Below are positions 858 through 53,916 of a stretch of 64,000 nucleotides of DNA, piece by piece. The notes under the pieces were generated by a model that was not told the DNA's origin, did no database searches, and saw only the letters and a program-made list of their open reading frames with translations. This DNA comes from a virus (Duplodnaviria > Heunggongvirae > Uroviricota > Caudoviricetes), in the IMG/VR virus record IMGVR_UViG_3300011339_000564, positions 14,318 through 78,317 of that record; one strand, given 5' to 3'. Both the position numbers and the translations under genes were made by a program. How positions within the stretch are numbered: the stretch's first letter is position 1; every line of letters begins with the position of its first letter.

Positions 858-1661
858 ATGGATCATTATGTAACTTTAGGGGTAAACAAAAATGCTACCC
901 CGGACGATATTAAAAAAGCATATCGCAAACTGGCAAGTAAACATCATCCCGATAAAGGGGGCGATACCGCAACGTTTCAACAAATTGAAGAAGCATATCG
1001 TATTCTCAGTGATCCACAACAACGTCAACAATATGACAATCCAATGCCACAAGGCTTTGGGCAGAATTTTAATTTTAACGGTGGACCTGATATCTTCCAA
1101 GACTTTATGAGTCAGGTGTTTAGGCAACAACATCAGCAACATCAACACCGCCAGAGACAAAAACCAGTATTTAGAACCACAGTAACTGTAACACTTGAAC
1201 AGTCATACAAAGGTGAAGAGCAAGTTATCAGACTACAAACACCTACACTTACACATGCGGCAAATATTCAAACTCCGAAAGGGGTTCATAATGGTGACCA
1301 AGTTAAATTTGATAATATCATACAAGAGGCAAGTCTTATTGTAGAGTTTAAAATTATACCACATTTAAAATATGATAGAAATGGAAATGACTTGTTATCA
1401 AATCACCCGATATCAATATTAGATTTAATTACAGGGACATCGTTTGAGTTTACTACTATTTCAGGTAAAACATTTGAAGTTACAGTTAAACCTAAAACGC
1501 AACCATTTATACAATTAAAAATTACAGGACAAGGTATGCCCATACATGGAACCAATCAGTTTGGCGACCAAATAATCTTGTTAAAACCCTATATACCTGA
1601 TATAATTGACGAATCAATTATTAACAGCATTCTACAATCTAAAAATAAGGAATCAATATGA
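858..1661 (+). CDS. J-domain co-chaperone (DnaJ/CbpA-like, no zinc finger)
   Basis: N-terminal J domain with the HPD motif (KHHPDKGG). The context YVTLGV...AYRKLA is typical of J domains. A Gly/Phe-rich linker ([15 protein letters not shown]) follows. Confidence 0.8.
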
Positions 1662-3919
1662 CAAATTCTCCGGAAATAGAAAACATTATCGAACAATCGA
1701 TTGAGTATGCCAAACAACGTAAACATCAATATGTTACAGTTGAACACTTACTTCTTGCATTAATTAATCATCCATCTTTTACTAAATGCGTAGTTGGCTT
1801 TGGCATAGATGTTGAGTCAATGTCACACGAAATCACTGGTTATTTAGATAGCTTACACGCTATTGTTTATACTGAAACTGAAGTAGTTCCACGCAAAACA
1901 AGTAGTTTAGAACGGGTTATGAATCGTTCTGTCACTCAGGTTCTATTCACCGGACGTAGACAAGTTACTACTATTGATTTGTATCTAAGTATTGCAAGTG
2001 AAGGTAACAGTCACGCACATTATTTCATGCTCAAATACGGTATGCAAAAGAATGAGTTTGTTGCGTACTGGCAAAAACACTATAAGAATGAAGGCGCCGG
2101 CAATCTTACTGAAAATCAAGCAGATGAAATTCTTGAAGAATATACTATTAACCTAAGTGAACTTGCTAGTCAAGGTAAACTTGAACCATTGATTGGTCGT
2201 GCAAAAGAACTTGATGATATTATCAATGTGCTTGCTAAACGATTTAAATCAAATGTATTGATGGTGGGTGATCCGGGTGTAGGTAAAACTGCTATTGCCG
2301 AAGGTCTTGCACAAATGATGCACGACAAACAAGTGCCTGAATTTTTAGAAGGTCATCAACTATATTCATTAGAAGTTGGTTCATTACTTGCCGGCAGCAA
2401 ATATCGCGGGGACTTTGAAGAAAAAGTCAAAGCCATTATCGATGCATTGAATACTAAAAAGAAAGCTATTTTATTCATTGACGAAGCACATACTATGCAA
2501 GGTGCAGGTTCAAGCTCCAATGGTAGTGTTGACTTTGCTAATATGATTAAACCAGCAATTACTAAAGGCACATTGAAAGTTATTGCTAGTACTACTTGGG
2601 AAGAATACTACGAAAGTTTTGAGAAGGATCGTGCATTAATGCGTAGATTCTATCGTGTCTCAATTGATGAACCAAGCAACGAATCTACTGTTCGAATTCT
2701 TTCTGGACTAAGCACACGATTGAATGACTTTCATAGTGTTGAAATTCAAGAAGATGCAATTAAAGCATCAGTTGAAATGTCAACACGATACATTCACGAC
2801 CGAAAAAATCCTGATAAAAGTATTGACTTATTGGATGCGGCTTGTGCTAAACAACGTGTTGCAGGTAATAAAGGTGCACATATTACTAAAGACTTAGTGT
2901 TTGACCAAGTAGAGAAGTTTACGGGAGTTCCTGCAGATAAGATGAAGGGTGATAATTTTGACCTTATCAATAACCTTGAGATTAATATCAAAGGTAAATT
3001 ATATGGTCAAGATGAAACCGTTCAGCAAGTGTTAGAACGTATCTATGTTAACTTTGCTGGTATCGGTAATGATACTAAACCAACAGGTAGTTTCTTGTTT
3101 TTAGGCCCAACAGGTACAGGTAAAACAGAATTGGCTAAGTTGTTAAGTAAGAACCTTGACATGCCATTGCTCAAATATGATATGAGTGAATACGGAGAAA
3201 AACATTCAGTATCTAGTTTGATCGGTCCGCCCCCTGGTTATGTTGGCTTCGGTGACAGTCAAGTCGGTGGTGGCCGTTTAATCAACGACTTAAGTAAGAA
3301 CCCACATGCTATCATGTTGTTTGATGAAGTTGAAAAAGCACACCCTGATATATTTAACATCTTCTTACAGATGTTAGACGAAGGTACTATTACAGGAAGT
3401 AATGGTAAGAAGGTTAACTGTAAGAATGCTATTATCATTATGACTAGTAACTTAGGTAGTGCCGATGGTGAGCGCAATAACATTGGTTTTGGATCACAAG
3501 ACAAGCAAGGAGAAGATGATAAAGCATTGAAAGAATTCTTTAAGCCAGAATTCAGAAATCGTGTTGATTTGATTTGCAAGTTTAACAAACTTGATAGCTT
3601 GGCTATTAAGAAAATTGTTATTAAGTTTACTGAAGATTTGAAAAAATCATTAATTGAAAAACACAATATCAATTTAGTATTGACAGAACCAGTAGTTGAG
3701 TATCTAGCTGAACAAGGGTATGACAAGAAAATGGGTGCTAGACCACTAGCACGTAAGATTGACGAATTGATTCGTGTACCACTGAGTAAAAAAGTATTGT
3801 TTGAACGCATTAAAAATGCTACTATTACTGCCAACATTGTTGGTGACACTATTGATTTTGCAGTGACACACAAATTAACAGCTAAGGTGAATGACGATGG
3901 CATTATTGAGGTCAGTTGA
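1658..3919 (+). CDS. clpA: ClpA-like ATP-dependent Clp protease ATP-binding subunit (two AAA+ modules)
   Basis: Two Walker A motifs (GDPGVGKT and GPTGTGKT). An IGF loop (NNIGFGS) sits just before [10 protein letters not shown], as in the ClpA ClpP-docking loop. At 753 aa there is no long ClpB middle domain. Confidence 0.85.
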
Positions 3920-9943: not shown

Positions 9944-12900
9944 ATGAGCAATATTCTACAAGGCTTAAACGAAACACAAAAACATGACGGTGTATTCTTG
10001 TTAACAGAATCTCGTACATACAAGTTATGGGAGAGTGCTGGACAAAAGATTAGTGAAGCACAACTAACTGCCGATCAGATTAATCAAATCTTTAAACAAG
10101 TTGAACAAGGTGCTACTGCCGCAGGTGGTAATCGTACAATGCTCGGTAAAGGTAAAGACGCAGCCGGCGCAGTAAAGCAAGCATATGATGATTTGGTGAG
10201 TAAAGCACAGAACTCAGGACCTATTAAAGGTGTTGATGCGATGTACGACAAAGCCGCCGAAAAATTAAAACAAGCAACTGGTGGCGATCAGGGTGTAATG
10301 AAATATGTACAGAAATATCGTGACTTTGCTAAAGAACACCCAGTAGCACAAGGTTTAATATATTCAGCATTAATTGCAGCCGCTGGTATCAGTGGTGCAG
10401 GTATTGGTGGTGCAGCCGCACTAGGTTTGTTTAAGATGGTAGACAAATTGTTACAGGGTGAGAAGTTTAGTACTGCTGTAGGTAAAGGCGTAACTACTGG
10501 TGCAATGGCTTATGGTGCAAGTAAAGTTGGTGATCTTTTCAAAGGTTCACCGCAAGGCGCACCTACTACTGCTGGATCAGACGCTACCGCAGGTGCGGCA
10601 CAAGATACATTGTCTGCGACTAGACAAGCAGTGGAAAAAGAAGCTATGGATGCCATTAAGTCTAGAATTGCCAATGGAGAAATAGCACCCGGCGATCAAG
10701 GTGCCATACGATATTTGGCATACAAAATGCTAGCTGGATCATGTATGCCGCCGCCGTCTATAGAAACTTCTGTAGAAAAATTAATAACACGATCTATGGG
10801 TGATGTAGGAACTAGCGCAACTAATACAGTGTCCGGCACATTGTCAGGTGTTACCGGAGAACAGATGGCTAGTCATCCTGCATACCAAGCAATGATTCAA
10901 AAGTTTGGCAATACACCCGGCGCTCGTCAGGCGGCTATGGCTGCTGCCAAGTCAGCAATTCTTAAGGGACAAGTCAATGAAAGTATCAATTTATCAGAAT
11001 CTCAAATCTTTCTATTGATAGGTAAGATTGTTGAACGTCAACGTAAACTTGACGAAGGCATCATGGATACACTTAAAGGCGCCGCAGGTAAAGCCGCCGA
11101 TTGGGCACAAACTAAAGGAACTAATTTAACAACTAAAGTTACTGCTGACAAATTATTACAAGCGTGGAAGAAAGCTGGTAGTCCAACAGATAGTTTAGAT
11201 GTTGCAAGCATTATTCAAAAAGCTGGTGTACCATCTGATTCAATCAAACAAGTATACACTACAATGCAAATACCTTTTGCAGGTGAAAAAGGTGCAGGTG
11301 CGAGTACAAAACGTAATATAGATGTTGATCCATCAAGTGTTGCACCAGCCGCTCCAACAAGTACACCCACTGCTTCTGCACCGTCAGCTACAGCAAATGC
11401 GCCGGCGGCAGATGCATCACAGCCTGCTACGGCCGCAACTGGCTCTTTAGCACAAGCACAAGAACTCATTGCAAAATTAGATCCAGAAACTAAAACAAAA
11501 CTTATATCAACATTGAAACAAGAGTTGAGTGTAGCTGAAAGTCGAATCAATGAATTATCTAATGAAAAATTAGGACAATACAAAAAAGCCGCAAGTGCTG
11601 ACGCTACTGCCGCTGACAAAGCAGGTGACTATAAGCGTGGTGATAAACGTTTCAGTGGTATTGTTCGTGCAACTAACAAACAGTTTGCTAATGATACTAA
11701 AAAACATGGTCAGCAAGGTGTGGCGGAAGGCTTAGAGCAATCATTATCGTCAATGGTAAGACAAGATCAGACTGAGCGGAATGAGTATGCAACCTTTGTA
11801 AAATCACAAGCAGGTGGTGATTGGTCCAAAGGGGCTAAAATGTATGCTCAACTCAAAAAAAGACCCATCGATGATATATTTGGTGATGCAATAAGATTAA
11901 ACCAGTTTATGAAAATGAAGTTTGATTTTGATAAATTTACCAATGAAGATTGGGACAATTATTGGTTGTTAGCACAGCATTGTGATAATAATCGTGACTT
12001 TCAAAAGAATGCTTTATCAATAATTAAAAAATATCAAGGTACAGATCATTCGCACTACAAATATCTATACGATAGAATCAGTATGGGTCTAACTGGTAAA
12101 CAGAAATACGGAACACAGAATATTAAAGAGCAAGGCGTGGCAGAAGGCTTCCCTCATGATGTTGACCATATGCCGGGTCCTGTGATTCGCAATGCTGATA
12201 TGACTACAGATAATGTCAAGACCAAAGACAAAGCAGAATGGGACAGAGCCACTGATAGCATCAACGCACGGGTGTTTGATGATATGAGTGAATTTCGCAC
12301 TGACAACAACGGTGAAACAGTTGTCGGTGATAGCGCAGTTTGGGCCAAGTGGGACAATGCTACACAAACAGGTTGGTTCAATGCCAAAGGTCGCCCATTA
12401 AAGCCTTGGCCTGTTAAAGAGCAAGGTGTGGCGGAAGGTGATGGGCCAAGATATATTGATAACATAATGAACCAGTATAAGGCAGGCTTGCCTGGCCAAA
12501 ACCCGGCGGCCTTATCTAAACCAACTAGAGCAGTTGATGCCAGAGGTCGCACACAAGAACAATGGGCACAATTAGTTAGGAGCAAGTTTCCGGGTGCTAA
12601 AATTACACAGGCTAAAATGATTGACGGGCCTATGCAAGCAACCTTACCTGATGGTAGAAAACTTGGATGGAAAAAAGTTGAACAAATTGATGAAATTATT
12701 GATCCTAGCACAAAGATGGCATGGGCATTACGCCACATCGCCGGGTTCCTTACTAGATTATTTCCTTACGCAGTGGGCGCCGGAACTTTGTGGGCAGCCA
12801 GTGGACTGTTGGCCCCACTAGTGGCTGCATCCGGTGGAGTGGCCGCGGCAATTTCTGCATTAGGCGGTTCAATGGGATCAGCTACAGGCGCGGCTGCAGG

Positions 12901-13795
12901 AGCAGTTGGCGGTGCCAGTATAATGCAAATTATTAAAAACTTATTTGCCGCAGACGAGAATAGTATACAAGCAGGAATTAAAAAGTGGGTAGAAAGACAA
13001 GTAGGTGACGAAGCCGATGTACAAGAATTTTTACTAACTCATGCCAAAGCCGCATATGACGGTAAACCTGGTTTCCGTTGGAGGGCTAAAGAGTGGCCTG
13101 TTAAATTAAGTAAAGATCAAGCAGAAGCATATTTAGAAAAGAAAGATAAATCTTGGCTTGATTATGAAAAGCAAAAAATAATCGATGCTGAAAAAGCGAA
13201 GGCTGAAAAAGATAAAGAAGGTATGATGGAAGAACAACTTGATGAACTAAATTGCTGGTCAGGTTACCATAGAGTTGCCGGCACTAAAGCAGGCTTTCCA
13301 GGTAGTTGTGCTAAAAATAAAACAAATGAATCAGAACATAAATGCCCACATTGCGGTGGCGAGATGGTTAGTGAAGAACTAATGAATGAAAAGAAAGATG
13401 CTTGCTACTATAAAGTAAAGAGCCGTTATAAAGTATGGCCAAGTGCTTATGCTAGTGGTGCGTTAGTTAAGTGCCGTAAGAGTGGTGCTGATAGCTGGGG
13501 CAACGGTGGAAAGAAGAATGAAGGTTCTATACTAGAAGGTATTAACCGAGCAGACGAAAGTTTGCATGATTGGTTTAATAAAGAAAAGTGGGTTCGCATG
13601 GATACTAAAGGAAAGATTAAAGGTCCGTGTGCTAGAGAACCAGGAGAAGGTAAACCTAAATGTTTACCTCAAGCAAAGGCACATAGTTTAGGCAAAAAAG
13701 GTCGTGCAAGCGCGGCTGCTAGAAAACGCAGAGAAGATCCCAATCCAGAACGTAGTGGTAAAGCCATCAATGTTAATACTAAAAAGAAAGACTAA
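9944..13795 (+). CDS. giant protein (1283 aa). Features are Gly/Ala-rich hydrophobic segments, three EQGVAEG motifs, coiled-coil and a C-terminal Cys cluster. Putative virion internal/ejection protein.
   Basis: ATG at 9944 lies just after the TAA of the upstream ORF; the track start 9842 is an in-frame upstream extension. Motifs: QQGVAEGLEQ, KEQGVAEGFPHD, KEQGVAEGDGPRY; CPHCGG...C...C near the C-terminus; hydrophobic block AVGAGTLWAASGLLAPLVAASGGVAAAISALGG. Confidence 0.75.
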   Translation: MSNILQGLNETQKHDGVFLLTESRTYKLWESAGQKISEAQLTADQINQIFKQVEQGATAAGGNRTMLGKGKDAAGAVKQAYDDLVSKAQNSGPIKGVDAMYDKAAEKLKQATGGDQGVMKYVQKYRDFAKEHPVAQGLIYSALIAAAGISGAGIGGAAALGLFKMVDKLLQGEKFSTAVGKGVTTGAMAYGASKVGDLFKGSPQGAPTTAGSDATAGAAQDTLSATRQAVEKEAMDAIKSRIANGEIAPGDQGAIRYLAYKMLAGSCMPPPSIETSVEKLITRSMGDVGTSATNTVSGTLSGVTGEQMASHPAYQAMIQKFGNTPGARQAAMAAAKSAILKGQVNESINLSESQIFLLIGKIVERQRKLDEGIMDTLKGAAGKAADWAQTKGTNLTTKVTADKLLQAWKKAGSPTDSLDVASIIQKAGVPSDSIKQVYTTMQIPFAGEKGAGASTKRNIDVDPSSVAPAAPTSTPTASAPSATANAPAADASQPATAATGSLAQAQELIAKLDPETKTKLISTLKQELSVAESRINELSNEKLGQYKKAASADATAADKAGDYKRGDKRFSGIVRATNKQFANDTKKHGQQGVAEGLEQSLSSMVRQDQTERNEYATFVKSQAGGDWSKGAKMYAQLKKRPIDDIFGDAIRLNQFMKMKFDFDKFTNEDWDNYWLLAQHCDNNRDFQKNALSIIKKYQGTDHSHYKYLYDRISMGLTGKQKYGTQNIKEQGVAEGFPHDVDHMPGPVIRNADMTTDNVKTKDKAEWDRATDSINARVFDDMSEFRTDNNGETVVGDSAVWAKWDNATQTGWFNAKGRPLKPWPVKEQGVAEGDGPRYIDNIMNQYKAGLPGQNPAALSKPTRAVDARGRTQEQWAQLVRSKFPGAKITQAKMIDGPMQATLPDGRKLGWKKVEQIDEIIDPSTKMAWALRHIAGFLTRLFPYAVGAGTLWAASGLLAPLVAASGGVAAAISALGGSMGSATGAAAGAVGGASIMQIIKNLFAADENSIQAGIKKWVERQVGDEADVQEFLLTHAKAAYDGKPGFRWRAKEWPVKLSKDQAEAYLEKKDKSWLDYEKQKIIDAEKAKAEKDKEGMMEEQLDELNCWSGYHRVAGTKAGFPGSCAKNKTNESEHKCPHCGGEMVSEELMNEKKDACYYKVKSRYKVWPSAYASGALVKCRKSGADSWGNGGKKNEGSILEGINRADESLHDWFNKEKWVRMDTKGKIKGPCAREPGEGKPKCLPQAKAHSLGKKGRASAAARKRREDPNPERSGKAINVNTKKKD

Positions 13796-13804: not shown

Positions 13805-14245
13805 ATGTTATCAGATAATCTAAAAGTACTTTTAGCTAGTACACAAAGTTTTGCTATTAAAACACAAAACTTTCATTGGAATGTTGAGGGGAGTAATTTT
13901 CCACAGTATCATGCATTTTTTGATACGTTATACGGTGATGTAAGTGCTACTATCGATCCTATCGCTGAATATATCAGAATATTAGGTGCTTACACACCCG
14001 GCAGTTTACAACGTTATGCTGAACTAAGTATCATTCAAGACCAAATCAAAATCCCACGTGCTCAACTAATGTTTGCTGAATCACTACAAGATTGTGAAAA
14101 AATGAGTGAATTAGTCGTTGCTATGTTTGACGAAGCAACAAACGAACGTCAGCAAGGCATTGCTAATTACATGGCTGAACTACAAGACCTATACGGTAAG
14201 AAAGCATGGTTCATTCGTTCTACATTGAAAACAGAACGTGAGTAA
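13805..14245 (+). CDS. dps: Dps-like ferritin-fold DNA-protection protein
   Basis: LKVLLASTQSFAIKTQNFHWNVEGSNFPQYHAFFDTLY matches the Dps N-terminal signature (HWNVxGxxFxxLHxxF). About 146 aa, typical Dps length. Confidence 0.7.
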   Translation: MLSDNLKVLLASTQSFAIKTQNFHWNVEGSNFPQYHAFFDTLYGDVSATIDPIAEYIRILGAYTPGSLQRYAELSIIQDQIKIPRAQLMFAESLQDCEKMSELVVAMFDEATNERQQGIANYMAELQDLYGKKAWFIRSTLKTERE

Positions 14246-15515
14246 ATTAGAATTTACCCAGAAAGAATGGGAAAAGATAGAAAATAACGGGACTTATTGT
14301 CCCGGTTTATTTAACAGCAAATACATAGAAACTGACGGTGGACTGAGAGCATGTTGTGTTCAAGATTTAAAAGGTGAACATTATACAAATACAGAATCCT
14401 ATAACACCACTTCGTTAAAACAAGCCAGACAAAATTCATTATCAGGGATTAAAGATTCCAGTTGCGCTAGATGTTGGGAAAATGAATCATTAAACACCAG
14501 ATCATATAGACAAGGTCTAGTAGAGTCTGCTATTCACTGGAAAAGTAAAATCAAAGATAATATAAATGTTGACTATTCCATCACAGAACCCACCATAGAC
14601 TACTTAGACATTAGATTTGATAATATCTGTAATTTAAGATGTAGATATTGCAGTACTATTTTTAGTTCTAGTTGGAGACACGAAACTGAGTTACTAGAAA
14701 AAGAATTACCAATATTTAAATATATAAAAAGAAGATCAGTAGATACAAAAATATTGAATAGTGTAACCGATATTGACACGATATTAGCTGACCTTAGAAC
14801 AGTTAAAAAAATATTTTTTGCGGGTGGCGAGCCATTAGTAAACGATAAACATTATGAAGTGTTAGAATATCTAATAGATAATAATAGAACCAACATTGAA
14901 ATAACGTATAATACTAATTTTACAAACATTAAAAAAGTTATTCCTTATTGGAAAAAGTTTTCAAACATACACGTGGGTGCAAGTTTAGATGCAAATTATA
15001 AAAGAGGAGAATACATTCGTAAAAATCTCGTATGGGACCAGATTGTAGAAAATAGAAAATTAATGATTGCCGAAGTTCCTCATGTTCAATTTGAAATAAA
15101 TGCGTCAATGAGTATATTGAATGCGTATAATGTAGTAGATTTTCATAAAGAATGGATTAATGATAAATTAATTGGACCTTTTGATTTAACTGCATGGAAT
15201 TTTGTATCTAAACCTGAACATTATGATATTAGGAATTTACCTGACCATCATAAGATTAAATTAAAAGAAATATATCAAACTCATATTGATTGGTTAAACT
15301 CCCTCACATCAGGCAATGATATTAAGTTTAAAAGTAAAAATGATTCTAGTTTTGCTATTCAATCATATCAAGGTATAATTAATAGGTTAAATTTAAGTAG
15401 AAATTCATCTTTTGACAAATTTTGGGAATTTGACAAATGGTTAGATAATAATAGAGATGAAAACTTTTTTGATGTGTTTCCTGAGTATGAGGACTTTGCT
15501 AGATATTTTAGCTAA
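14238..15515 (+). CDS. radical SAM domain protein with an N-terminal Cys-rich extension
   Basis: CNLRCRYC is a CX3CX2C radical SAM cluster motif. Additional N-terminal cysteines (CPG...ACC...CARC). No C-terminal SPASM cysteines. GTG start assumed at 14238. Confidence 0.65.
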   Translation: MSKLEFTQKEWEKIENNGTYCPGLFNSKYIETDGGLRACCVQDLKGEHYTNTESYNTTSLKQARQNSLSGIKDSSCARCWENESLNTRSYRQGLVESAIHWKSKIKDNINVDYSITEPTIDYLDIRFDNICNLRCRYCSTIFSSSWRHETELLEKELPIFKYIKRRSVDTKILNSVTDIDTILADLRTVKKIFFAGGEPLVNDKHYEVLEYLIDNNRTNIEITYNTNFTNIKKVIPYWKKFSNIHVGASLDANYKRGEYIRKNLVWDQIVENRKLMIAEVPHVQFEINASMSILNAYNVVDFHKEWINDKLIGPFDLTAWNFVSKPEHYDIRNLPDHHKIKLKEIYQTHIDWLNSLTSGNDIKFKSKNDSSFAIQSYQGIINRLNLSRNSSFDKFWEFDKWLDNNRDENFFDVFPEYEDFARYFS

Positions 15516-15544
15516 ATATTATTATAAGAACAATAGAGAGTAAC

Positions 15545-15982
15545 ATGAAAAAAATTATAACAACAATACTATTGGCATTAGCCACTGTAACATATGCACA
15601 GAAAACACCTCAAGGTGTTACATACGATGCAAACATCATTAAAGTAAGTGACGGTGACACTATTGTTATTGCCGCACCTTTTTTACCAGCTCCATTAAAG
15701 CCACAGTTAGCAGTTAGAATATTTGGTGTTGACACCCCTGAAAAAGGATTCAGAGCTAAATGTGAATCAGAAAATCAACGTGGTTTAGCCGCTAGCGAGT
15801 TTACTAAGAAACTCGTAGGTGCTAGTCAGAAGCGTCAAGTGATATTATATGATTGGGATAAGTTTGGCGGCCGTGTCTTGGGTGACATTATATTAGACGG
15901 CAAAAGCCTACGACAACAATTGATTGCTAATGGCTTTGCCCGTGAGTATTTTGGTGAAGCCAAGCAATCTTGGTGTAATTAA
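15545..15982 (+). CDS. secreted staphylococcal-nuclease-like thermonuclease (SNase fold)
   Basis: Signal peptide MKKIITTILLALATVTYAQ. VSDGDTIVI...RIFGVDTPEKG matches the SNase catalytic region. Confidence 0.7.
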   Translation: MKKIITTILLALATVTYAQKTPQGVTYDANIIKVSDGDTIVIAAPFLPAPLKPQLAVRIFGVDTPEKGFRAKCESENQRGLAASEFTKKLVGASQKRQVILYDWDKFGGRVLGDIILDGKSLRQQLIANGFAREYFGEAKQSWCN

Positions 15983-16707
15983 TTCTTAGTATAAACAAAG
16001 TATAATCTATCGTTATTGTCTTTCTTAAAGGTATCTAACTTTAGATTGTATTTCTCAGCAAACTCATTTACAACTTCAAAGCTCCAAGGGAAGATTTCTA
16101 CATAAGGTCCATTTTTGTGAGGAATTCCTGGATTGGCTCGTAGATAAAATTTTCCACCTACCTTTAGCAAACTAACACAGTGTTCAAATCGTGTTTCAAT
16201 CTCATCTTTGCTATTGAAGTTAATTGAACCAAGAGCCAGAATTACATCGTGTGATTCTGGTTTTACTTTGTACTCTAATATATCAACTTCATAATCAGCT
16301 TGATTATTGTATGGATCAATGCCAATCAGATTCTGAATGCGACCCTTGAATGGGTGATATCCGCAACCAACATCAAGTACTTTTTCTGGGTTTAGTTTGT
16401 TAACTTCATCAGCTAGTTCCCAACCAGTGTGTTCATAGTCACCTGTGCGTGGTTTCCAAATCTCACTAAAAAAACGTAAGATATAACGTTCACTTAAGTC
16501 ATGTACAATTTCTTTTAATGTACCCACATAGTCGCAGGGTAGACTTAATTCAGCTTCCACCGCGTTTTTAAACTTGCTATATCGTGCAGGAGTCCAGGGT
16601 AAGTCTTGGACAATAGTGTTTTCATCAATAGAAATTTTGGAATACTTAGGTAAATTAAACGCAAGTTCTAAATTTTCCTTGACTAACTTAAAAATTTTTG
16701 TGTTCAT
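15979..16707 (-). CDS. class I SAM-dependent methyltransferase
   Basis: Motif I VLDVGCGYHPF. A lone minus-strand gene among plus-strand genes. Confidence 0.65.
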   Translation of the reverse strand: MNTKIFKLVKENLELAFNLPKYSKISIDENTIVQDLPWTPARYSKFKNAVEAELSLPCDYVGTLKEIVHDLSERYILRFFSEIWKPRTGDYEHTGWELADEVNKLNPEKVLDVGCGYHPFKGRIQNLIGIDPYNNQADYEVDILEYKVKPESHDVILALGSINFNSKDEIETRFEHCVSLLKVGGKFYLRANPGIPHKNGPYVEIFPWSFEVVNEFAEKYNLKLDTFKKDNNDRLYFVYTKN

Positions 16708-16787
16708 AGTAATTTTTTCTATATTTTGTAAATTTTTATGCCAAATGGAATAAATATATGTTCATCATATTTATTATCGGAGGACAG

Positions 16788-17747
16788 ATGAGAAAACTTT
16801 TAGTATTATTAGCATTTATACCGTTAGTTGCTTTTGCTTGGCAACCAACAAAACCTGTAACAGTTATATTCCCAAATGGCCCGGGAGCAGGAAATGAAAT
16901 ATCATTTCGTATTGTAGCAGAGATTGTAGAAAAACAAACTGGTGCAAAATTTGTACCTGAATATAGGCCGGGAGCTGATGGCAATATAGCTATCAATCAC
17001 TTTGTAACAGTTCCTACTGATGGGCACACTATCAGTGTTCCGGCATGTCAGTCAAATTGGGTCACCCCTGAAGTGTGGTATCCAAAGGTAATCAAGTATA
17101 ACCCAATGGATTTAGAACCCATTGCTAATATTGCACGTAGTCCATTAGCATTCTGGGCGCATCCTAGCAGTAAGATTAATACTCCCGAAGAACTAGTAGC
17201 CGCTATTCGCAAAAAAGAGCGCCCTATTACAATAGCAATAGGTGGCGGCGGTCATAAGTTAGCAGTTGAATATCTTGCTGCCAAACTAAATGTACCGGGC
17301 GGTGATCGAATAGAAACAGCTATGTATAAAGGTCCAGCACAAGCGTTATTAGATGTAATGGGAGGTCACGTTGAATTTGGAGTGACCCCGGTTGCTGTTG
17401 GATACCCTCACGTACAAACAGGAAAACTAAAGTTAATTGGTATTGCTGATACTAGACCATTGCCTGGATTAGAAACAGCACCATTGATGAATAAGGCAGC
17501 ACCTGGATTAAGCATACATGGTTGCTGGAATATAGTTCTACCTCCCAATACCCCGCAGGATATACAAAAATGGTATGCTGAACACTTTGTTCCTGCAATA
17601 CGTAGCGCGGAAGCAGGCGCTAAATTCAAAGAAAACATGATGTACATTACACCCGAAGAACATAGCCCAGCAGGTGTTCGTGCTAGTATGTCGAGACTAC
17701 AGCAAGTTTGGCAACCGATTGCTAGAAGAATAGATCCTAATAAATGA
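16788..17747 (+). CDS. TctC/Bug-family periplasmic solute-binding protein (tripartite tricarboxylate transporter receptor-like)
   Basis: Signal peptide MRKLLVLLAFIPLVAFA. Length and motifs (PNGPGAGNEISFRIVAE, EYRPGADGNIAI) resemble the Bug/TctC family. Start chosen at the internal ATG 16788 with GGAGGA upstream. Confidence 0.55.
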   Translation: MRKLLVLLAFIPLVAFAWQPTKPVTVIFPNGPGAGNEISFRIVAEIVEKQTGAKFVPEYRPGADGNIAINHFVTVPTDGHTISVPACQSNWVTPEVWYPKVIKYNPMDLEPIANIARSPLAFWAHPSSKINTPEELVAAIRKKERPITIAIGGGGHKLAVEYLAAKLNVPGGDRIETAMYKGPAQALLDVMGGHVEFGVTPVAVGYPHVQTGKLKLIGIADTRPLPGLETAPLMNKAAPGLSIHGCWNIVLPPNTPQDIQKWYAEHFVPAIRSAEAGAKFKENMMYITPEEHSPAGVRASMSRLQQVWQPIARRIDPNK

Positions 17748-18319
17748 AAATAGGTTTATCAATGGAGATGACCCGCAAGTTGCGTGATACGTGGCATGCG
17801 GCTATCAATTACGAATGGTATGACTTTTTATCAGAGCATGATACTGTTCCTTTATCCTGTCATGGAAAAGTTCCGCAGACAGATGAGTTTGACTTAATCA
17901 TATTGGCAGGTGGTAATGACATGCACGGCATTAAAACATGGCGTGACAATCATTATCCAATACGTGACCACTATGAGCATAGTTTGATTCAACAATGTTT
18001 GTTAACTAACACCCCTGTTGCTGGCATATGCAGAGGAGCTCATTTTATCAATCATGTTATGGGTGGCACACATAAGTTAATGGATCACCCATACGACAAT
18101 GTTAAAGTTCAATTGCCTCAGTTTGAAGTAACTTGCCATCACACAATTCAACTTGATACATTAGCTCCTGGCTTTGAAGTGTTACAACAAGATAAAAATG
18201 GTATTGTTGAATTAGCAGTAAATAAATCACAACGTATGTTAGGTATTGGTTGGCATCCAGAACGTGAAGTTAACAAACATACTAGACAATACATTTTAGA
18301 TTTGATTAAGGACTTATGA
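17744..18319 (+). CDS. class I glutamine amidotransferase-like protein
   Basis: GICRGAHFINHV (nucleophile-elbow-like Cys) and GWHPERE (His-Pro-Glu of the GATase triad). Confidence 0.5.
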   Translation: MKIGLSMEMTRKLRDTWHAAINYEWYDFLSEHDTVPLSCHGKVPQTDEFDLIILAGGNDMHGIKTWRDNHYPIRDHYEHSLIQQCLLTNTPVAGICRGAHFINHVMGGTHKLMDHPYDNVKVQLPQFEVTCHHTIQLDTLAPGFEVLQQDKNGIVELAVNKSQRMLGIGWHPEREVNKHTRQYILDLIKDL

Positions 18320-18936
18320 AATACATATTTGTAGCAGGTGCACCGGGCAGTAAGTGGAGTAGTGTGGTAAAGAACATTTACTATAGCCCTAGTGTTGACC
18401 AATCAGACTATAGTGATGATAGAACATATTATCACGATGCCAGTGGTAAGTTGGAGTTGATGCATCTAGGTGCATACTATGATCCTGGTATGGAGTTTGG
18501 TAAATTGTTTCACAGACTACCTATGTATGACAAAGAAACATTAGAACGTGACTTTGATGAAGCATTTACTGGTGAAGGTGTTCGTATTATTAAGTCACAC
18601 GTGTTTAGTAATCACATTGACTATATCAAAGAAACATGGCCTGAATGTCCATTAGTTCTGGTGCATCGTCCCGATGACGCATGTTTAGGATGGTGGGTGA
18701 AGTGCGGGCATTTCAACATCACATACCCTGACTATAGTGAATATTATCAGAACTTGAAAGTAATGGCTGAAAAGATTAAAGAACAGAATCAGGGTATTAT
18801 CAAAGCAACATATAAGTATCCAGGTCGAGCACCATTAACTAATCACATGCTGTGTAAGATGCTAAATATAGAACTACCACCGAGTGAGTATGAACAAAAT
18901 TACGGTGTATCAAACATAAGGGTAACAGTAATATGA
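18316..18936 (+). CDS. hypothetical protein with a P-loop-like N-terminus (possible sulfotransferase/kinase fold)
   Basis: FVAGAPGSKWSSV resembles the sulfotransferase PAPS-binding or kinase P-loop; not conclusive. Confidence 0.4.
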   Translation: MKYIFVAGAPGSKWSSVVKNIYYSPSVDQSDYSDDRTYYHDASGKLELMHLGAYYDPGMEFGKLFHRLPMYDKETLERDFDEAFTGEGVRIIKSHVFSNHIDYIKETWPECPLVLVHRPDDACLGWWVKCGHFNITYPDYSEYYQNLKVMAEKIKEQNQGIIKATYKYPGRAPLTNHMLCKMLNIELPPSEYEQNYGVSNIRVTVI

Positions 18937-19619
18937 TAAGCAGTTGGGAACAAAGTAAGAAAAAAAGTAATTATCATTTTGATAATTTCAAAAATGATTT
19001 ACAAGTTGACAAAGTAACTAAGTTGGGTAAGATAGTTGCAGACTACAGTGAGGATGTTAAACATGCAATAGAATCTTCAAAGCCAGCAACATGGCGTACA
19101 CGTGGTGCAGTGGGTAAAACAAGACCTGAAGAAGAATTAGCCGCAGAAGACTATGATTTGGAACAATTTGGTTATGGTAAAGATTATCAAATCACTCACT
19201 TAAATTGGGAAATAACTCCTAACTTGAAAAAGATTAGTGATTTGTTCGGTCTATCAGATTGCATGGAACGTATACATGTTCAAAAGCCCGGTGAAGTTTG
19301 GAATCTGCATTTAGATAAATTAGAGAAGTGGGCACCCGATTCACCTTGGACAGTCATGCGTGTGCAAGTAGCATTGACTGATTGGGAGCAAGGTCATTTC
19401 TGGAGTTATGGTAATTACAATCATCAGCAATGGCATGCAGGCGATGTGACAACATTTGACTGGCATAATTTACCACATTGTACTGCAAATGCAGGACATA
19501 ACCCTAGAGTCACGTTTCAATTAACTGGTGTTATTACTGAAAAAACTAAAGAGTTTTTAAGTAGATTAAAGAGATTTGATAATTATACCTTGAATTTGTC
19601 AGAGAATTCTTGGTTCTGA
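18933..19619 (+). CDS. hypothetical protein (228 aa)
   Basis: ORF overlapping the previous stop. Confidence 0.5.
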   Translation: MISSWEQSKKKSNYHFDNFKNDLQVDKVTKLGKIVADYSEDVKHAIESSKPATWRTRGAVGKTRPEEELAAEDYDLEQFGYGKDYQITHLNWEITPNLKKISDLFGLSDCMERIHVQKPGEVWNLHLDKLEKWAPDSPWTVMRVQVALTDWEQGHFWSYGNYNHQQWHAGDVTTFDWHNLPHCTANAGHNPRVTFQLTGVITEKTKEFLSRLKRFDNYTLNLSENSWF

Positions 19620-19741
19620 ACACACCTTAGGACCGGTACTTGTTACCGCGGTGTAGCCGGCTGCTGGCTTGACGTATGAATTCGCTACTCAGAAGTCTAA
19701 AGTGAGCTTTAATGATAAATAGTATACAAAGGACATTTATT

Positions 19742-20540: not shown

Positions 20541-20560
20541 TTGATTATTTGTGCTATAAT
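20532..20560 (+). promoter_or_regulatory. sigma70-like promoter (TTTCAA-17-TATAAT). The ATG at 20567 is 6-7 nt downstream, so the transcript is probably leaderless.
   Basis: TATAAT at 20555-20560. The -35-like hexamer TTTCAA sits 17 nt upstream. Confidence 0.4.
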
Positions 20561-20566: not shown

Positions 20567-21163
20567 ATGATTAAGATTACAGTTCCATTACCCAAACAAA
20601 TTACTGTTGCATGTAGCGGCGGTGTTGATAGTATGGCTGTAGTTGACTTTCTAAGTCGCAAACACGATGTAACTATTGCCCATTTTAATCATAGAACACA
20701 AAACGGTGAACGTGCCGCCCAATTTGTTTCTGGGTATTGTGGTGATAATAATATTCCTATGCTATACGGATCACCTCGCAGTGAACGCGGAACAAAAGAA
20801 TCAATGGAAGAATATTGGCGCAGAGAACGATATGAATTCCTAAGCGAATTAGGACCGGTCATCACTTGTCATCATCTGGATGACTGTGTTGAGACATATG
20901 TTTGGTCTAGTTTACATGGTACAGCCAAAGTTATCCCACTCACTCGCAAAAATGTATTGCGCCCATTTTTAACTACACGTAAGAGTGAATTTGTTCGATG
21001 GTGTGAACAACATAAAGTTCCTTGGATTGAGGACGAATCAAACAAAGATACCAAATACACAAGAAATTACATTCGCAACGAAATGATGCCACATATATTG
21101 AAAGTCAATCCGGGCATTCATACTTTGGTCAAGAAGATTGTAGAAGGTAAGCAAAATACTTGA
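20567..21163 (+). CDS. tilS: TilS-like PP-loop ATPase: the tRNA(Ile)-lysidine synthetase catalytic domain only (about 198 aa)
   Basis: SGGVDS PP-loop. CHHLDDCVETYVW matches the TilS AHHLDDQxETFL block. RPFL...WIEDESNKDTKYTRNYIRNEMMP matches TilS RPLL...WIEDESNQD..Y.RN.LR. It lacks the QueC C-terminal Zn cysteines, so it is not QueC. Confidence 0.7.
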   Translation: MIKITVPLPKQITVACSGGVDSMAVVDFLSRKHDVTIAHFNHRTQNGERAAQFVSGYCGDNNIPMLYGSPRSERGTKESMEEYWRRERYEFLSELGPVITCHHLDDCVETYVWSSLHGTAKVIPLTRKNVLRPFLTTRKSEFVRWCEQHKVPWIEDESNKDTKYTRNYIRNEMMPHILKVNPGIHTLVKKIVEGKQNT

Positions 21164-21187
21164 CTTCTCTACGCAAGCCAAGTACAA
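21159..21187 (+). promoter_or_regulatory. sigma70-like promoter TTGACT-17-TACAAT
   Basis: Hexamers with 17-nt spacing. Followed by AAGGAG and the ATG at 21212. Confidence 0.5.
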
Positions 21188-21211
21188 TAACTAATTATTT
21201 AAGGAGAAACT

Positions 21212-21478
21212 ATGTCAGATTATAACAGAACCTTTAACGGTGAGGCAAAAATTAAACTAACTCAACTAGTAAATGAGGGCATGACAGTCCTACATGAGAT
21301 TGATACATTGAATGGTGGATTGAATGACACTATTAAAGCAGTCGCAGAAGAACTTGAAATCAAGGCTTCTACTTTGAAGAAAGCAATTAAAATTGCTCAC
21401 AAAGCAAGTCTCGGTCAGACTAACAAAGACCACGATGAACTCAACACTATCTTGGAAACTGTGGGCAAAACACTTTGA
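21212..21478 (+). CDS. hypothetical protein (88 aa)
   Basis: Strong SD (AAGGAG) and ORF. Confidence 0.5.
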   Translation: MSDYNRTFNGEAKIKLTQLVNEGMTVLHEIDTLNGGLNDTIKAVAEELEIKASTLKKAIKIAHKASLGQTNKDHDELNTILETVGKTL

Positions 21479-24183
21479 GTTACGTTGACGCTATTCATAG
21501 TAGGGATGAAGACCGTATCTACGTGGTAGAACGTGATAAGAATGGCGTACGCCAGTATAAAGAATATCCTACTAACTATGTGTTGTATTACCCTGACCAC
21601 AAGGGTAAACATCGTAGTATCTATGGCAATCCAGTTAGTCGTTTCAGTACACGCAAACGCACCGAGTTTGAAAAAGAAAAGCGCATCCACTCAGGTAAAA
21701 CATTGTTTGAATCTGATATCAATGTAGTCTTTCGTTGTCTAAGCGAAAACTATCTTAAAGTTGATGCACCTAACCTTCATACTTGCTTCTTTGACATTGA
21801 AGTGGACTTTGATCCAGTCAAAGGATTCAGTCCTACAAGTGATCCATTCAATCCCGTAACTGCTATCAGTTGTTACTTAGATTGGCTTGACCAATGTATT
21901 ACATTAGTTATTGCTCCTAAGCACATGACCACTGAGACTGCGTGGGAAATAGTTAGAGAGTTTCCTAATTGTTTTCTTTGCAATAACGAAAAGGAAATGT
22001 TTGATACATTCTTTGAATTAATTGAAGATGCTGATGTATTAACTGGCTGGAACTCAGAAGGATACGATATTCCATATATGGTCAATCGTGTTACTAGAGT
22101 AATGAGTAAAGATGATACACGCAAGTTTTGCTTGATGGGTCAGCTTCCTAAACCTCGTGAGTACGAACGATTTGGTAAGAAAGAAATGACTTACGATTTA
22201 GTCGGTAGAATTCACCTTGACTATTTACAACTTTACAAAAAGTATAACTATGAATCTCGACATTCATATAAGTTAGATGCTATCGGTGAGATGGAAGTTG
22301 GTGAAAACAAAACACAATATGAAGGTACTCTTGACCAGTTGTATAACAAAGACTTTAAAAAGTTCATTGAATACAATAGGCAAGATACAATGTTGTTGGT
22401 GAAGATTCACAACAAACTTAAGTTTTTAGAATTAGCTAATCAACTTGCACACGAAAATACAGTACTGCTTCCAACAGTAATGGGTTCAGTGGCAATGATT
22501 GAGATGGCAATTTTTAATGAGGCCCACGAACGTGGGTTAGTTGTCCCAGATAAAAAACGAAAGGTTGAAAATGCAGAAGAAATCCAGCAGGCAGCAGGTG
22601 CCTATGTTGCTACGCCCAAAAGAGGTATGCACGAATGGGTCGGCGCCGTCGACATTAACTCGCTCTATCCCTCGGTTATTCGTGCCGTCAACATGGGAGG
22701 AGAAACGATTGTCGCACAAGTCAGACAAACATTAACCGATCACTACATAAAAGAAAAGGGTCGTAATCTTGCTGAAGGAAAGAAATATTTCAAAGAAGGT
22801 GATGAAGATGTGACTGGTGCTATATTATGGGAGAACTTGTTCGGCTCATTAGAATATACTGCTATTATGAACCAAGAGCGTGGCACAATGCTTACTGTAG
22901 ATTACGAAGATGGTCGTAGTGAAGAAATGAGTGCGGCAGAAGTATGGAAGATGATTTTTGATAGTCACAAACCCTGGATGCTCTCTGCAAACGGAACAAT
23001 CTTCACATATGAAAAAGAAGGTGTTGTTCCTGGTCTACTCACACGCTGGTATACAGAACGTAAAGTAATTCAAAAACAAGCAAAAGAAGCATATGGCACA
23101 GATATGTATGATTATTACGACAAGCGACAACTAGTTCGTAAGATTTTATTGAACTCCGCGTATGGTGCATTGTTGAACGAACATTGTCGTTTCTATGATA
23201 AGCGCATTGGTCAAAGTGTTACATTGAGTGGGCGTCAAATCGTGCGACACATGATGAGTACAATCAATGAATCAGTAACTGGTGATTATAATCACGAAGG
23301 TCCTGCAATTGTTTATGGTGATACTGACTCATGTTATTTCACAGCATATCCTATTCTTAAACAGCAAATTGAGAGTGGCGAACTAACTTGGGATAAAGAA
23401 ACTTGTATCGGATTGTATGATGGCATCGCTGACCAAGCTAATGAATCGTTCCCTGCATTTATGGAACGTGCATTTCATGCACCTCGCAAGAATGGTGAGA
23501 TTATTAAAGCTGGTCGTGAACTGATCGGTGATCGTAGTATCTTTATCACTAAGAAACGTTATGCTATTAACATCTTTGACAAAGAGGGCAAGCGTAAAGA
23601 TAAAGACGGTGCTCTTGGTGATATCAAAGCTATGGGTCTTGACTTGAAACGTGCTGATACACCTAAGTATGTACAAGAATTCTTAATGGATGTGCTTGAG
23701 ATGGTTCTTCAACGAGGTAAAAATCGTGAGGATGTAATTGAACGTGTTAAGGAATTTAAACGTGTTATGGTAGCACAGGACAGCTGGACTAAAGGTTCTC
23801 CTAAATCAGTTAATAATTTAACTAAGCATACACAAATATTTGACAAAACAGGTAAGTGTGGTGTTGGTCACGCACGTGCCGCAATCAATTGGAACTATCT
23901 ACGCAGAATGAATGGGGACAACTACAGTCAACAAATTGTTGATGGTATGAAAATTATTGTATGTAAACTTAAATCTAACCCATTAGGCTTTAATAGTATT
24001 GCTTATCCGGTTGATGAATTACGATTGCCTACATGGTTCAAAGAATTACCATTTGACGATAGTGCAATGGAATCAACATTGGTTGATGAAAAGATTGACA
24101 ACTTGCTTGGTGTTCTTAATTGGGACATTAAGAGTAACATTGATGTTAAATCTACGTTTGATGACTTATTCAGTTTCGGTTAA
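21475..24183 (+). CDS. family B DNA polymerase with 3'-5' exonuclease domain
   Basis: Exo I FFDIEVD; Pol motif A DINSLYPSVI; motif B KILLNSAYGAL; motif C VYGDTDSCYF. Confidence 0.95.
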   Translation: MSYVDAIHSRDEDRIYVVERDKNGVRQYKEYPTNYVLYYPDHKGKHRSIYGNPVSRFSTRKRTEFEKEKRIHSGKTLFESDINVVFRCLSENYLKVDAPNLHTCFFDIEVDFDPVKGFSPTSDPFNPVTAISCYLDWLDQCITLVIAPKHMTTETAWEIVREFPNCFLCNNEKEMFDTFFELIEDADVLTGWNSEGYDIPYMVNRVTRVMSKDDTRKFCLMGQLPKPREYERFGKKEMTYDLVGRIHLDYLQLYKKYNYESRHSYKLDAIGEMEVGENKTQYEGTLDQLYNKDFKKFIEYNRQDTMLLVKIHNKLKFLELANQLAHENTVLLPTVMGSVAMIEMAIFNEAHERGLVVPDKKRKVENAEEIQQAAGAYVATPKRGMHEWVGAVDINSLYPSVIRAVNMGGETIVAQVRQTLTDHYIKEKGRNLAEGKKYFKEGDEDVTGAILWENLFGSLEYTAIMNQERGTMLTVDYEDGRSEEMSAAEVWKMIFDSHKPWMLSANGTIFTYEKEGVVPGLLTRWYTERKVIQKQAKEAYGTDMYDYYDKRQLVRKILLNSAYGALLNEHCRFYDKRIGQSVTLSGRQIVRHMMSTINESVTGDYNHEGPAIVYGDTDSCYFTAYPILKQQIESGELTWDKETCIGLYDGIADQANESFPAFMERAFHAPRKNGEIIKAGRELIGDRSIFITKKRYAINIFDKEGKRKDKDGALGDIKAMGLDLKRADTPKYVQEFLMDVLEMVLQRGKNREDVIERVKEFKRVMVAQDSWTKGSPKSVNNLTKHTQIFDKTGKCGVGHARAAINWNYLRRMNGDNYSQQIVDGMKIIVCKLKSNPLGFNSIAYPVDELRLPTWFKELPFDDSAMESTLVDEKIDNLLGVLNWDIKSNIDVKSTFDDLFSFG

Positions 24184-48440: not shown

Positions 48441-48859
48441 AATGGTTCTATGTTATTAAAACAAGTCACAATGACACACTAGGATTTGGAATTACTATTC
48501 ATTTGTCTAAACGATTAGTTGATGGTTATTGTAATCCTAGTGCGGCAAAACAACAATTTTCAAAATTGTATTATGGAGAAAATCTCCATATCAATCAATT
48601 AGAAAAATATATCAAACAGGTATATAGTAATAAACGATTAAACTTTACTAACACACGTACCCGTAAATTAGAATGGATAGATCCAAAATATGACATTTCA
48701 ATTGAGGATTTGATTGATACTGTTGAGGATCGTATTTTGGGCTACCCATTACCTATCAAACGTATCAGGGATAAATTCTTACCATACACCCTTGATAATC
48801 CGGATATCTTTAAAACAATCAATGAGAATCCTGATTTGTTTTTGGAACAACTCGGTTGA
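48437..48859 (+). CDS. hypothetical protein (140 aa)
   Basis: ORF. Confidence 0.5.
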   Translation: MKWFYVIKTSHNDTLGFGITIHLSKRLVDGYCNPSAAKQQFSKLYYGENLHINQLEKYIKQVYSNKRLNFTNTRTRKLEWIDPKYDISIEDLIDTVEDRILGYPLPIKRIRDKFLPYTLDNPDIFKTINENPDLFLEQLG

Positions 48860-48884
48860 CAACATCTAAATAGTAGTATATAAT
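48856..48884 (+). promoter_or_regulatory. sigma70 consensus promoter TTGACA-17-TATAAT. The ATG at 48891 is 6 nt downstream, so the transcript is probably leaderless.
   Basis: Exact hexamers; no SD. Confidence 0.55.
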
Positions 48885-48890
48885 AGACAC

Positions 48891-49889: not shown

Positions 49890-50092
49890 ATGAAATAATT
49901 AAAGAACTAATGAAACATGCCGGTACTGATACTAGTGGTAAATGGATGGGTGTAGAACACGCTGAAAAGTTCACCGAATTGATTGTGCAGGAATGTGCTG
50001 ATGTTCTATTAAAGTGGAAGGGTGAACCCTTTCCATTTGATGAAGACCTTGCGGCAAGTCTAATTAAAGAACATTTCGGAGTTGGATCGTGA
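49886..50092 (+). CDS. small 'FAELIVREC' family paralog
   Basis: KFTELIVQECADV...KEHFGVGS. Confidence 0.45.
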   Translation: MNEIIKELMKHAGTDTSGKWMGVEHAEKFTELIVQECADVLLKWKGEPFPFDEDLAASLIKEHFGVGS

Positions 50093-50619: not shown

Positions 50620-50641
50620 TGGAACATTGGAGTATTGAAGA

Positions 50642-53818: not shown

Positions 53819-53916
53819 AATATGTATTTATGTCAACGGAATACATAGCTGCCGCGTTATATATATGTAGACACAAAAAATGTTGTTCTACTTTCATTAA
53901 CATAAAGGAAATCAAA

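Follow-up and report, generated by a model that had tools for sequence, protein, structure and literature searches.

Introduction

Two types of tRNA(Ile)-lysidine synthetase (TilS) have been published, type I with two appended C-terminal domains (CTD1 and CTD2) and type II with CTD1 only, and unlike other wobble-modifying enzymes TilS is described as always needing one or two appended domains to separate tRNA-Ile2 from tRNA-Met (PMC11947777; PMC12514573). Short phage tilS genes have been annotated before, in the Pseudomonas phages MIJ3 and PA5oct; the MIJ3 gene was called unusual, and the missing domains went unremarked and the function was left open (PMC6892783). Here we analyse a tilS-like gene that encodes a protein of 198 amino acids (aa) at positions 20567–21163 (plus strand, ATG start codon, TGA stop codon included) of a 64,000-nucleotide (nt) stretch of tailed-phage DNA, positions 14,318 to 78,317 of the IMG/VR virus record IMGVR_UViG_3300011339_000564 (Caudoviricetes). 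The whole of this stretch is referred to below as the window and coordinates are those of the window unless another sequence is named. The reading that we favour, and consider fairly probable, is that the gene encodes a single-domain TilS that acts on tRNA-Ile2(CAU) and is made early from a leaderless mRNA, with catalysis, substrate, transcription start and timing all predicted from comparative sequence analysis.

A TilS-like protein reduced to the catalytic domain

A preliminary description of the window, made from the letters and the open reading frame (ORF) translations, had called the product a catalytic-domain-only TilS because of its sequence blocks (SGGVDS, HHLDDCVETY, RPFL, WIEDESNKD and RNYIR), and all of these were located in the ORF. 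Profile searches placed the protein in the same family. PF01171 (PP-loop, Pfam) matched aa 11–172 over profile positions 1–182 of 182 (1.6e-35), and TIGR02432 (lysidine_TilS_N, the NCBIfam equivalog domain for the TilS N-terminus) matched over profile positions 2–189 of 189 with 126.3 bits (1.3e-36) against a cutoff of 93.6. The sequence matches in PDB were solely to TilS (1wy5 at 1.4e-19, 1ni5 and 3a2k) and Foldseek ranked five TilS entries first (2e21, 1wy5, 2e89, 1ni5 and 3a2k), with TtuA and other PP-loop enzymes lower. Placement in another PP-loop family such as QueC or MnmA, the outcome that would have overturned the preliminary assignment, did not occur: QueC, MnmA/TrmU, TtcA, LarE and argininosuccinate synthase gave no significant full-domain match, only short ones in the PP-loop region. 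The next non-TilS NCBIfam model was TtcA (18.6 bits, E = 8.7e-4, cutoff 272), followed by LarE (E = 0.037), the Pfam family tRNA_Me_trans gave E = 0.14, and the QueC-like matches were confined to the PP-loop (PHROGs, E = 9e-4, aa 11–46; PADLOC, E = 9e-6, aa 10–53). By this homology the 198-aa protein is a TilS N-terminal PP-loop domain.

The conserved positions can be followed through the gene. The codons for SGGVDS, the ATP-binding motif of the PP-loop (aa 17–22), lie at 20615–20632, aligned with E. coli TilS S20–S25, and S17, G18, G19, D21 and S22 are each conserved in 93–96% of 136 family members. HHLDDCVETY, a TilS-family block (aa 102–111), is encoded at 20870–20899 with near-invariant H102, L104, D106 and E109, and E. 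coli TilS L117, D119 and E122 are aligned with it. The stretch from RPFL (aa 132–135) to WIEDESNKD (aa 153–161) and RNYIR (aa 166–170) is encoded at 20960–21076, and its near-invariant R132, P133, D156, N159, R166 and R170 align with R153, P154, D177, N180, R187 and R191 of E. coli TilS; all of these features are on the plus strand. The TilS-specific residues that lie outside the PP-loop (E. coli H51, E90, R97, D119, E122, R153–P154, D177, N180, R187 and R191) all occur in the window protein, and each is shared by at least 90% of the 136 members.

The alignments stop where the catalytic domain stops, which bears out the claim that the C-terminal domains are missing. Residues 10–192 of the protein align to residues 25–227 of the 317-aa TilS of Aquifex aeolicus, where the phage sequence ends, and the alignment to E. 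coli TilS/MesJ (1ni5, a chain of 433 residues) spans residues 13–199. The full-length TilS model NF007942 scored 63.9 bits against a cutoff of 606, and neither the protein nor its neighbouring ORFs had a Pfam TilS or TilS_C match. A separately encoded TilS C-terminal domain was not found by tblastn in the window or beside the relatives, a weak negative given that these domains diverge fast. Because types I and II both carry CTD1 and the phage protein ends before it, the protein falls outside both described types.

Family extent and selection

Single-domain proteins of this kind are numerous. A word-indexed search returned 2397 relatives, and the best 120 of the 2397 are all 195–203 aa long with 72–88% identity. 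An exhaustive search of 50%-identity representatives gave at least 180 clusters at E <= 1e-30; of the best 150, almost every one has a length of 180–230 aa. Relatives of about 200 aa come almost entirely from viral or metagenomic contigs, and more than 550 IMG/VR loci carry family members. In GTDB species genomes the single protein query found no close relative, and a clade alignment found distant ones on seven contigs of metagenome-assembled genomes (MAGs). A 'TilS' of Ralstonia phage RsoM2USA was set aside as a family member (348 aa, 27% identity).

In the 136 members, which extend down to about 35% identity, the positions conserved at 90% or more are the PP-loop, H42, E81, W84, R85, R88, H102, L104, D106, E109, G118, R132–P133, D156, N159, R166, R170 and P182–G183, and E. 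coli TilS has the same residue at all of them except W84, H102 and G183. The ratio of non-synonymous to synonymous substitution rates (dN/dS) within the clade is 0.06–0.19 (median 0.11, 69 pairs). Judged by these lengths and this conservation the single-domain TilS is a real family under selection and no truncation fragment.

A conserved promoter abutting the start codon

The preliminary description had also pointed to a promoter-like TATAAT ending 6 nt before the ATG and had proposed a leaderless transcript. The hexamer is found at 20555–20560, followed by gcacag and the start codon (20567–20569), the A of which is the predicted transcription start given the spacing, and a TG at 20552–20553 makes it an extended −10 element (TGcTATAAT, 20552–20560, plus strand). 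Its conservation was assessed in 45 distinct upstream sequences from members of the lineage. The start codon is ATG in all 45, TAnnnT and the TG extension are each kept in 43 (TGnTAnnnT, 43/45), the spacing is exactly 6 nt in 41 and a Shine–Dalgarno core is present in none, and the −10/ATG geometry is kept across at least five unrelated upstream gene contexts. Codon −1 is an in-frame stop in 37 of the 42 relatives compared; the ORF therefore cannot start earlier and the start is fixed. More diverged members (TilS 54–58% identical) show TTGACA or TTGACT, 17 nt, the −10 element, 5–6 nt and the ATG. The usual distance from a −10 element to +1 is 7 nt and, applied to a spacing of 6 nt, this would place the transcription start at the A of the AUG. 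With the geometry held in 41–43 of the 45 relatives despite turnover of the upstream gene, and with no Shine–Dalgarno core, the proposal that the tilS mRNA of the window lineage is leaderless from a predicted start at the AUG is well supported.

The same arrangement recurs at three other genes in the window: ORF 481–849 (TTGACA-17-TATAAT-7-ATG, 445–483), the 5′–3′ exonuclease gene at 48891–49889 (TTGACA-17-TATAAT-6-ATG, 48856–48893) and ORF 56154–57455 (TTGACA-17-TACAAT-6-ATG, 56119–56156). Among distinct relatives, 24 of 41 retain it at the exonuclease gene and two of three at ORF 481, which suggests that the phage makes several leaderless early mRNAs. In other phages (five loci checked) several family members start at ATGA overlaps with the upstream gene, indicating translational coupling of their tilS, and because of this the leaderless design looks specific to the lineage. 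The phage does use Shine–Dalgarno sequences elsewhere, since the neighbouring 88-aa gene (21212–21478) has an ordinary promoter, a leader and a strong AAGGAG. This promoter (sigma-70 type, TTGACT-17-TACAAT, 21160–21188, plus strand, 10/12 matches in the promoter scan) overlaps the tilS stop codon and serves both the 88-aa gene and the DNA polymerase gene (21475–24183).

The alternative that survives best, although we think it unlikely, is that tilS is translated from a read-through polycistronic mRNA by Shine–Dalgarno-independent initiation, with TGnTATAAT serving as an internal promoter for the downstream genes or as an A/U-rich translational enhancer. Several observations count against a leaderless start in this way. 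The −35 element of the window tilS is weak (3/6 matches), so that a consensus promoter scan, which needs a −35 of at least 4/6, does not call the tilS promoter, and because the scan misses the site the leaderless case rests on conservation. No terminator lies in the 26-nt gap between the upstream ORF and tilS, and for this reason leadered read-through transcripts probably exist as well. A clear Shine–Dalgarno core was found in only 25 of the 75 window ORFs, so initiation without one seems common in this phage. What argues for the leaderless start nevertheless is that the hexamer with its TG extension stays exactly 6 nt from an unvarying ATG while the flanks and the upstream gene change, that consensus −35 boxes appear at 17 nt in the diverged relatives and that the three other window genes show the same geometry with consensus promoters, a register for which an enhancer would have no need.

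Linkage of the family to CAU-anticodon tRNA genes

Linkage to tRNA genes was examined at 80 diverse IMG/VR loci of distant members, scanned for tRNAs over ±10 kb and dereplicated to 55 clusters at 80% identity. A tRNA gene is in range in 49 of the 55 clusters and one with a CAU anticodon in 31. In 18 clusters a CAU tRNA gene lies within 150 nt of tilS, usually 33–84 nt downstream and on the same strand, and in three it is just another kind of tRNA gene that lies this close; with a background CAU share of 14% of all tRNAs in the loci the binomial P for CAU adjacency is 4.6e-13. At a dozen loci the adjacent CAU tRNA is the sole tRNA within 20 kb, and the adjacency is repeated on the MAG contigs, which were found independently.

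The adjacent tRNAs themselves look like tRNA-Ile2. They are without initiator features, and 15 of the 20 distinct sequences have C4 and C5 as in E. coli ileX. One representative, used as a query, matched in E. coli genomes only PGAP features called tRNA-Ile, and in phage records it matched CAU tRNAs of T4-type phages, labelled tRNA-Met mostly and tRNA-Ile in two. Because CAU tRNAs so often adjoin tilS (18 clusters versus three), lysidine synthesis on tRNA-Ile2(CAU) would be the best reading of the family linkage, for which this amounts to strong guilt by association. The earlier suggestion that phage TilS usually accompanies a tRNA-Ile(CAU) thus stands for the wider family; in the phage's own lineage the scans, over about 90 kb, turned up no tRNA.

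Other RNA genes were noted in these surroundings. A tmRNA gene lies within a few kb of the module of tilS and tRNA(CAU) in several phages (loci L090, L100, L105, L106, L119 and L122), for example at 9218–9526 of L119, just upstream of tilS at 10001, so that translation-rescue and decoding functions are clustered. CUA-anticodon tRNAs (amber suppressors, to which ARAGORN gives the label 'Pyl') are found about 2 kb from a short tilS (12460–12533 in L108, L109 and L114), about 3.6 kb from the 348-aa TilS homologue of RsoM2USA (24594–24671 in L170) and at two loci without tilS (12500–12574 in L436 and 12130–12204 in L440). These CUA tRNAs are hints of stop-codon recoding in some of the phages.

The locus and tRNA complement of the window lineage

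The DNA polymerase downstream of tilS belongs to family B and its best matches are in jumbo myoviruses (Sinorhizobium phage Phosso 49%, Agrobacterium phage Atu_ph07 46%, Klebsiella phages RaK2/K64-1 44%), while close relatives of the window sit on IMG/VR and JGI contigs of 249–525 kb, several of about 350 kb. On these grounds we assign the window to an uncultured T4-superfamily jumbo phage with a predicted genome of about 350 kb. The window itself comes from a JGI metagenome contig of 77,134 bp (3300011337, Ga0153702_1008). Among 50,697 phage records Megablast found none that matched the region, and the GC content of the window sequence is 36–40% (about 37%). The order tilS, 88-aa gene, DNA polymerase is kept in relatives whose polymerase is down to 72% and whose TilS is 54–58% identical.

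No tRNA-Ile(CAU) had been seen in the window at the outset, and ARAGORN found no tRNA of any kind in the 64 kb, nor did Rfam report anything at the gathering threshold. Taken together, the tRNA scans of the lineage reach from about −10 kb to about +82 kb on the window scale. A generic scan of IMG/VR for an Ile2-like pattern gave no hit on a known lineage contig among the at least 120 stretches listed, and a repeated promoter motif was unusable as a probe for the lineage because the motif occurs only once in the window. Contigs that carry a Band_7 gene and tRNA clusters were rejected as non-syntenic, sharing one gene with the window and having no tilS. The Band_7 (SPFH) gene itself (62875–63672; 448 IMG/VR hits) keeps 76–93% identity in many jumbo-phage contigs that are otherwise non-syntenic. 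Conservation so far above that of its neighbours points to frequent exchange of the gene or to strong constraint on it.

About ten genes of the window have counterparts (40–76% identity) in a 142-kb relative, whose TilS is 52% identical and whose tilS is followed after 64 nt by a CAU tRNA and then by a tRNA cluster. Because this relative still has tilS beside a CAU tRNA, the cassette of tilS and tRNA is probably ancestral and the gene is likely to have been relocated in the window lineage.

Proposed mechanism and its alternatives

In the scheme that we propose the gene product is a tRNA(Ile)-lysidine synthetase of which only the N-terminal PP-loop catalytic domain is left. Lysidine formation would turn a Met-type anticodon into an AUA-reading one that is charged by isoleucyl-tRNA synthetase, and the benefit would be more AUA-decoding capacity for an AT-rich jumbo phage (37% GC) in which AUA is used 14.3 times per 1000 codons, or for 21% of Ile codons. 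Because the domains that deal with the acceptor stem (CTD2) and the anticodon stem (CTD1) are missing, the tRNA would be recognized by its anticodon arm alone. In many relatives the enzyme and its presumed tRNA, 33–84 nt apart, would form a two-gene cassette. In the window lineage, where tilS stands at the head of the DNA-polymerase cluster, the substrate would be either the tRNA-Ile2 of the host or a tRNA encoded in another part of the phage genome, and the gene would be expressed early by host sigma-70 RNA polymerase from the extended −10 promoter, starting at the A of the AUG. Host TilS efficiency has been reported to vary about 1000-fold and to be very low in a high-GC, AUA-poor bacterium (PMC12514573), and because of this range boosting the modification of host tRNA-Ile2 is a plausible alternative role for the phage enzyme.

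A number of points weigh against this scheme. Without its CTD2 the B. cenocepacia TilS was only weakly active (PMC11947777). The AlphaFold model, moderate overall and built from a shallow alignment (mean predicted local distance difference test, pLDDT, 70.7), falls below 50 at residues 103–127 and 133–136, conserved blocks among them. To our knowledge every characterised TilS has at least CTD1, and we know of no TilS consisting of the N-terminal domain only that has been shown to be active. About one-third of the family loci have tRNA clusters and no CAU tRNA in range, and in LR756502.1, the 642-kb uncultured huge phage that has the closest database TilS (46% identity), the gene is surrounded by tRNA arrays; these contain a tRNA-Ile(UAU), and no CAU tRNA lies within 20 kb of tilS. 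This tRNA-Ile(UAU) (13502–13575 in locus L169) can read AUA without lysidine and is a poor fit to a picture of one enzyme and one tRNA. In the lineage of the window no tRNA was found on the window's own contig (positions 295–72,897), at 34 close-relative loci (±10 kb around tilS), at the loci of 26 relatives around the SprT-like gene or at three loci upstream of the window start.

A bolder form of the scheme, which we regard as rather doubtful, would make the protein a third, phage-borne TilS architecture that reads the anticodon arm alone and that, paired with a dedicated tRNA-Ile2(CAU), makes up a portable cassette for AUA decoding. In the window lineage the enzyme would have become uncoupled from any phage tRNA and be made very early from the leaderless mRNA, and its substrates would be the CAU tRNAs of the host. 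It would either supplement a slow host TilS or, its specificity being relaxed, convert elongator tRNA-Met as well, with the result that decoding of the host AUN box is re-tuned for the phage.

The conversion of tRNA-Met would be the whole point if specificity were simply relaxed and the enzyme lysidinylated any accessible CAU anticodon loop, including that of host elongator tRNA-Met, with the result that part of the Met pool reads AUA, helping the AUA-rich phage genes and disturbing host decoding. The domains tied in published work to rejection of tRNA-Met and to checking of the acceptor stem are indeed absent, the window lineage has no linked cognate tRNA, and removal of CTD2 loosened acceptor-stem discrimination in the B. 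cenocepacia enzyme; the same truncated enzyme, however, still rejected tRNA-Met (PMC11947777). The tight linkage of the family to one Ile2-like type of tRNA speaks for a dedicated substrate, and C34 of host tRNA-Met is often already modified (N4-acetylcytidine, ac4C), and we consider this explanation improbable.

Equally improbable is a TilS-derived PP-loop enzyme with another substrate or nucleophile, such as a different RNA or DNA cytosine or a non-lysine amine, for which a place at the head of the replication cluster would be meaningful. The fixed position of tilS directly upstream of the DNA polymerase operon with no tRNA nearby would suit such an enzyme, TilS accepts 5-aminovaleramide in vitro, and the predicted lysine-site region is poorly modelled. 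Against this, all the TilS-specific conserved residues are kept and the score exceeds the equivalog-domain cutoff, relatives at 50–58% identity adjoin tRNA clusters or CAU tRNAs, no DNA-modification partner genes are conserved beside tilS, and lysidine at C2 would abolish C:G pairing in DNA (established lysidine, k2C, chemistry). The preliminary description had mentioned a nucleic-acid cytosine as a possible substrate, and that suggestion gained no support.

The dimerization of TilS through its N-terminal domain (established structural knowledge, 1NI5 and 1WY5) and the absence of domains that bind the tRNA body could also fit a non-catalytic remnant that serves as a decoy and blocks host AUA decoding, perhaps through contact with host TilS or tRNA-Ile2, but PP-loop and catalytic-site residues near-invariant down to 35% identity, the low dN/dS (0.11), the harm that an AUA-rich phage would do to itself and the linkage to a co-encoded CAU tRNA, which fits an active enzyme, make this scarcely credible.

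Other features of the window

Upstream of tilS, at 13805–18319, are genes for ferritin-like, radical-SAM, staphylococcal-nuclease, TctC-like solute-binding and class-I glutamine amidotransferase/peptidase C26 homologues, and in more distant relatives (loci L148 and L152) the staphylococcal-nuclease homologue is embedded inside a tRNA cluster. A large set of chaperone and protease-adaptor genes, together with a ribosomal protein gene, comprises dnaJ (858–1661) and clpB (1658–3919) in the window and ClpX, ribosomal protein bS21, HSP20 and ClpS just past its 3′ end (17365–19713 in locus L458; about 68.6–71.0 kb in window coordinates), and a phage bS21 beside leaderless-type genes is of possible interest. 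ORF 53830–54237 contains three tandem 39-nt repeats, two of them identical (53974–54090), that encode an Ala/Pro/Lys/Glu-rich repeat, and paralogous small genes occur at three places in the window (49881–50646, 59033–59327 and 60326–60566; repeat families D2, D4, D6, D7 and D8).

Comparison with known systems

Relative to the literature searched, three things appear to be new: that catalytic-domain-only TilS is a large, conserved and essentially viral family, that this family is statistically tied to an adjacent tRNA-Ile2-like gene, and that in the window lineage tilS has apparently been transferred to the replication cluster, where a conserved leaderless-type promoter precedes it. The family offers a natural minimal system for asking what the TilS catalytic domain recognizes alone, especially where the presumed tRNA is encoded beside it. 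It also suggests that large phages import tRNAs together with the enzyme that makes one of them functional, which would matter for an AT-rich phage in a host whose genes contain few AUA codons and whose TilS is slow. The conserved leaderless-type promoters at early genes provide a concrete case for leaderless translation in a jumbo phage of the T4 superfamily.

Among the characterised enzymes the type II TilS of A. aeolicus (1WY5/2E21/2E89, 317 aa) is the best match to the phage protein in both sequence (1.4e-19) and fold (Foldseek, 1.9e-12). The two have in common SGGVDS, HHL[DN]D..ET, the RP motif and ED.SN....RN.IR, and their N-terminal domains align end to end, but the A. aeolicus enzyme keeps a CTD1 of about 100 aa that reaches the anticodon stem and the tRNA elbow, whereas the phage protein stops at the N-terminal domain or the linker helix and begins about 15 residues nearer to the PP-loop. 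With type I TilS (E. coli TilS/MesJ, 1NI5, 432 aa; the Geobacillus kaustophilus TilS–tRNA complex, 3A2K) the catalytic domain is homologous, the phage family matching E. coli residues S20–S25, H51, E90, R94, R97, D119, E122, R153, P154, D177, N180, R187 and R191, but both CTD1 and CTD2 of type I are absent from the phage protein.

The TilS of the Pseudomonas jumbo phages PA5oct and MIJ3 (MIJ3 gp263, 203 aa; PMC6892783) has the same single-domain architecture and is 40% identical over 97% of the query. CAU tRNAs are present in MIJ3 too: in two of them the anticodon arm is of the E. coli ileX type, and another is initiator-like. The two of the ileX type (10199–10275 and 10680–10756 in locus L084) have identical bodies with the ileX anticodon arm GCGACTCATAATCGC and wholly different acceptor stems (CCCTCGG and GGGACTT); they may be a Met/Ile2 pair told apart by the acceptor stem alone or two variants of Ile2. 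The MIJ3 gene differs from that of the window in its setting, lying 5–10 kb downstream of a 12-tRNA cluster amid small early genes and not beside the DNA polymerase, and it has no leaderless-type promoter.

Leaderless mRNAs with a promoter abutting the start codon are known from lambda cI, transcribed from PRM, and are common in Actinobacteria, Deinococcus and archaea; for leaderless-type early genes in this group of jumbo phages no description was found in the literature searched. As in leaderless mRNAs such as that of lambda cI, the phage tilS has its −10 element 6 nt before the AUG, has no Shine–Dalgarno sequence and starts strictly with AUG. Unlike that of cI, the leaderless state of the phage tilS is predicted from the comparison of related sequences, and the arrangement recurs at several early genes of one jumbo-phage lineage.

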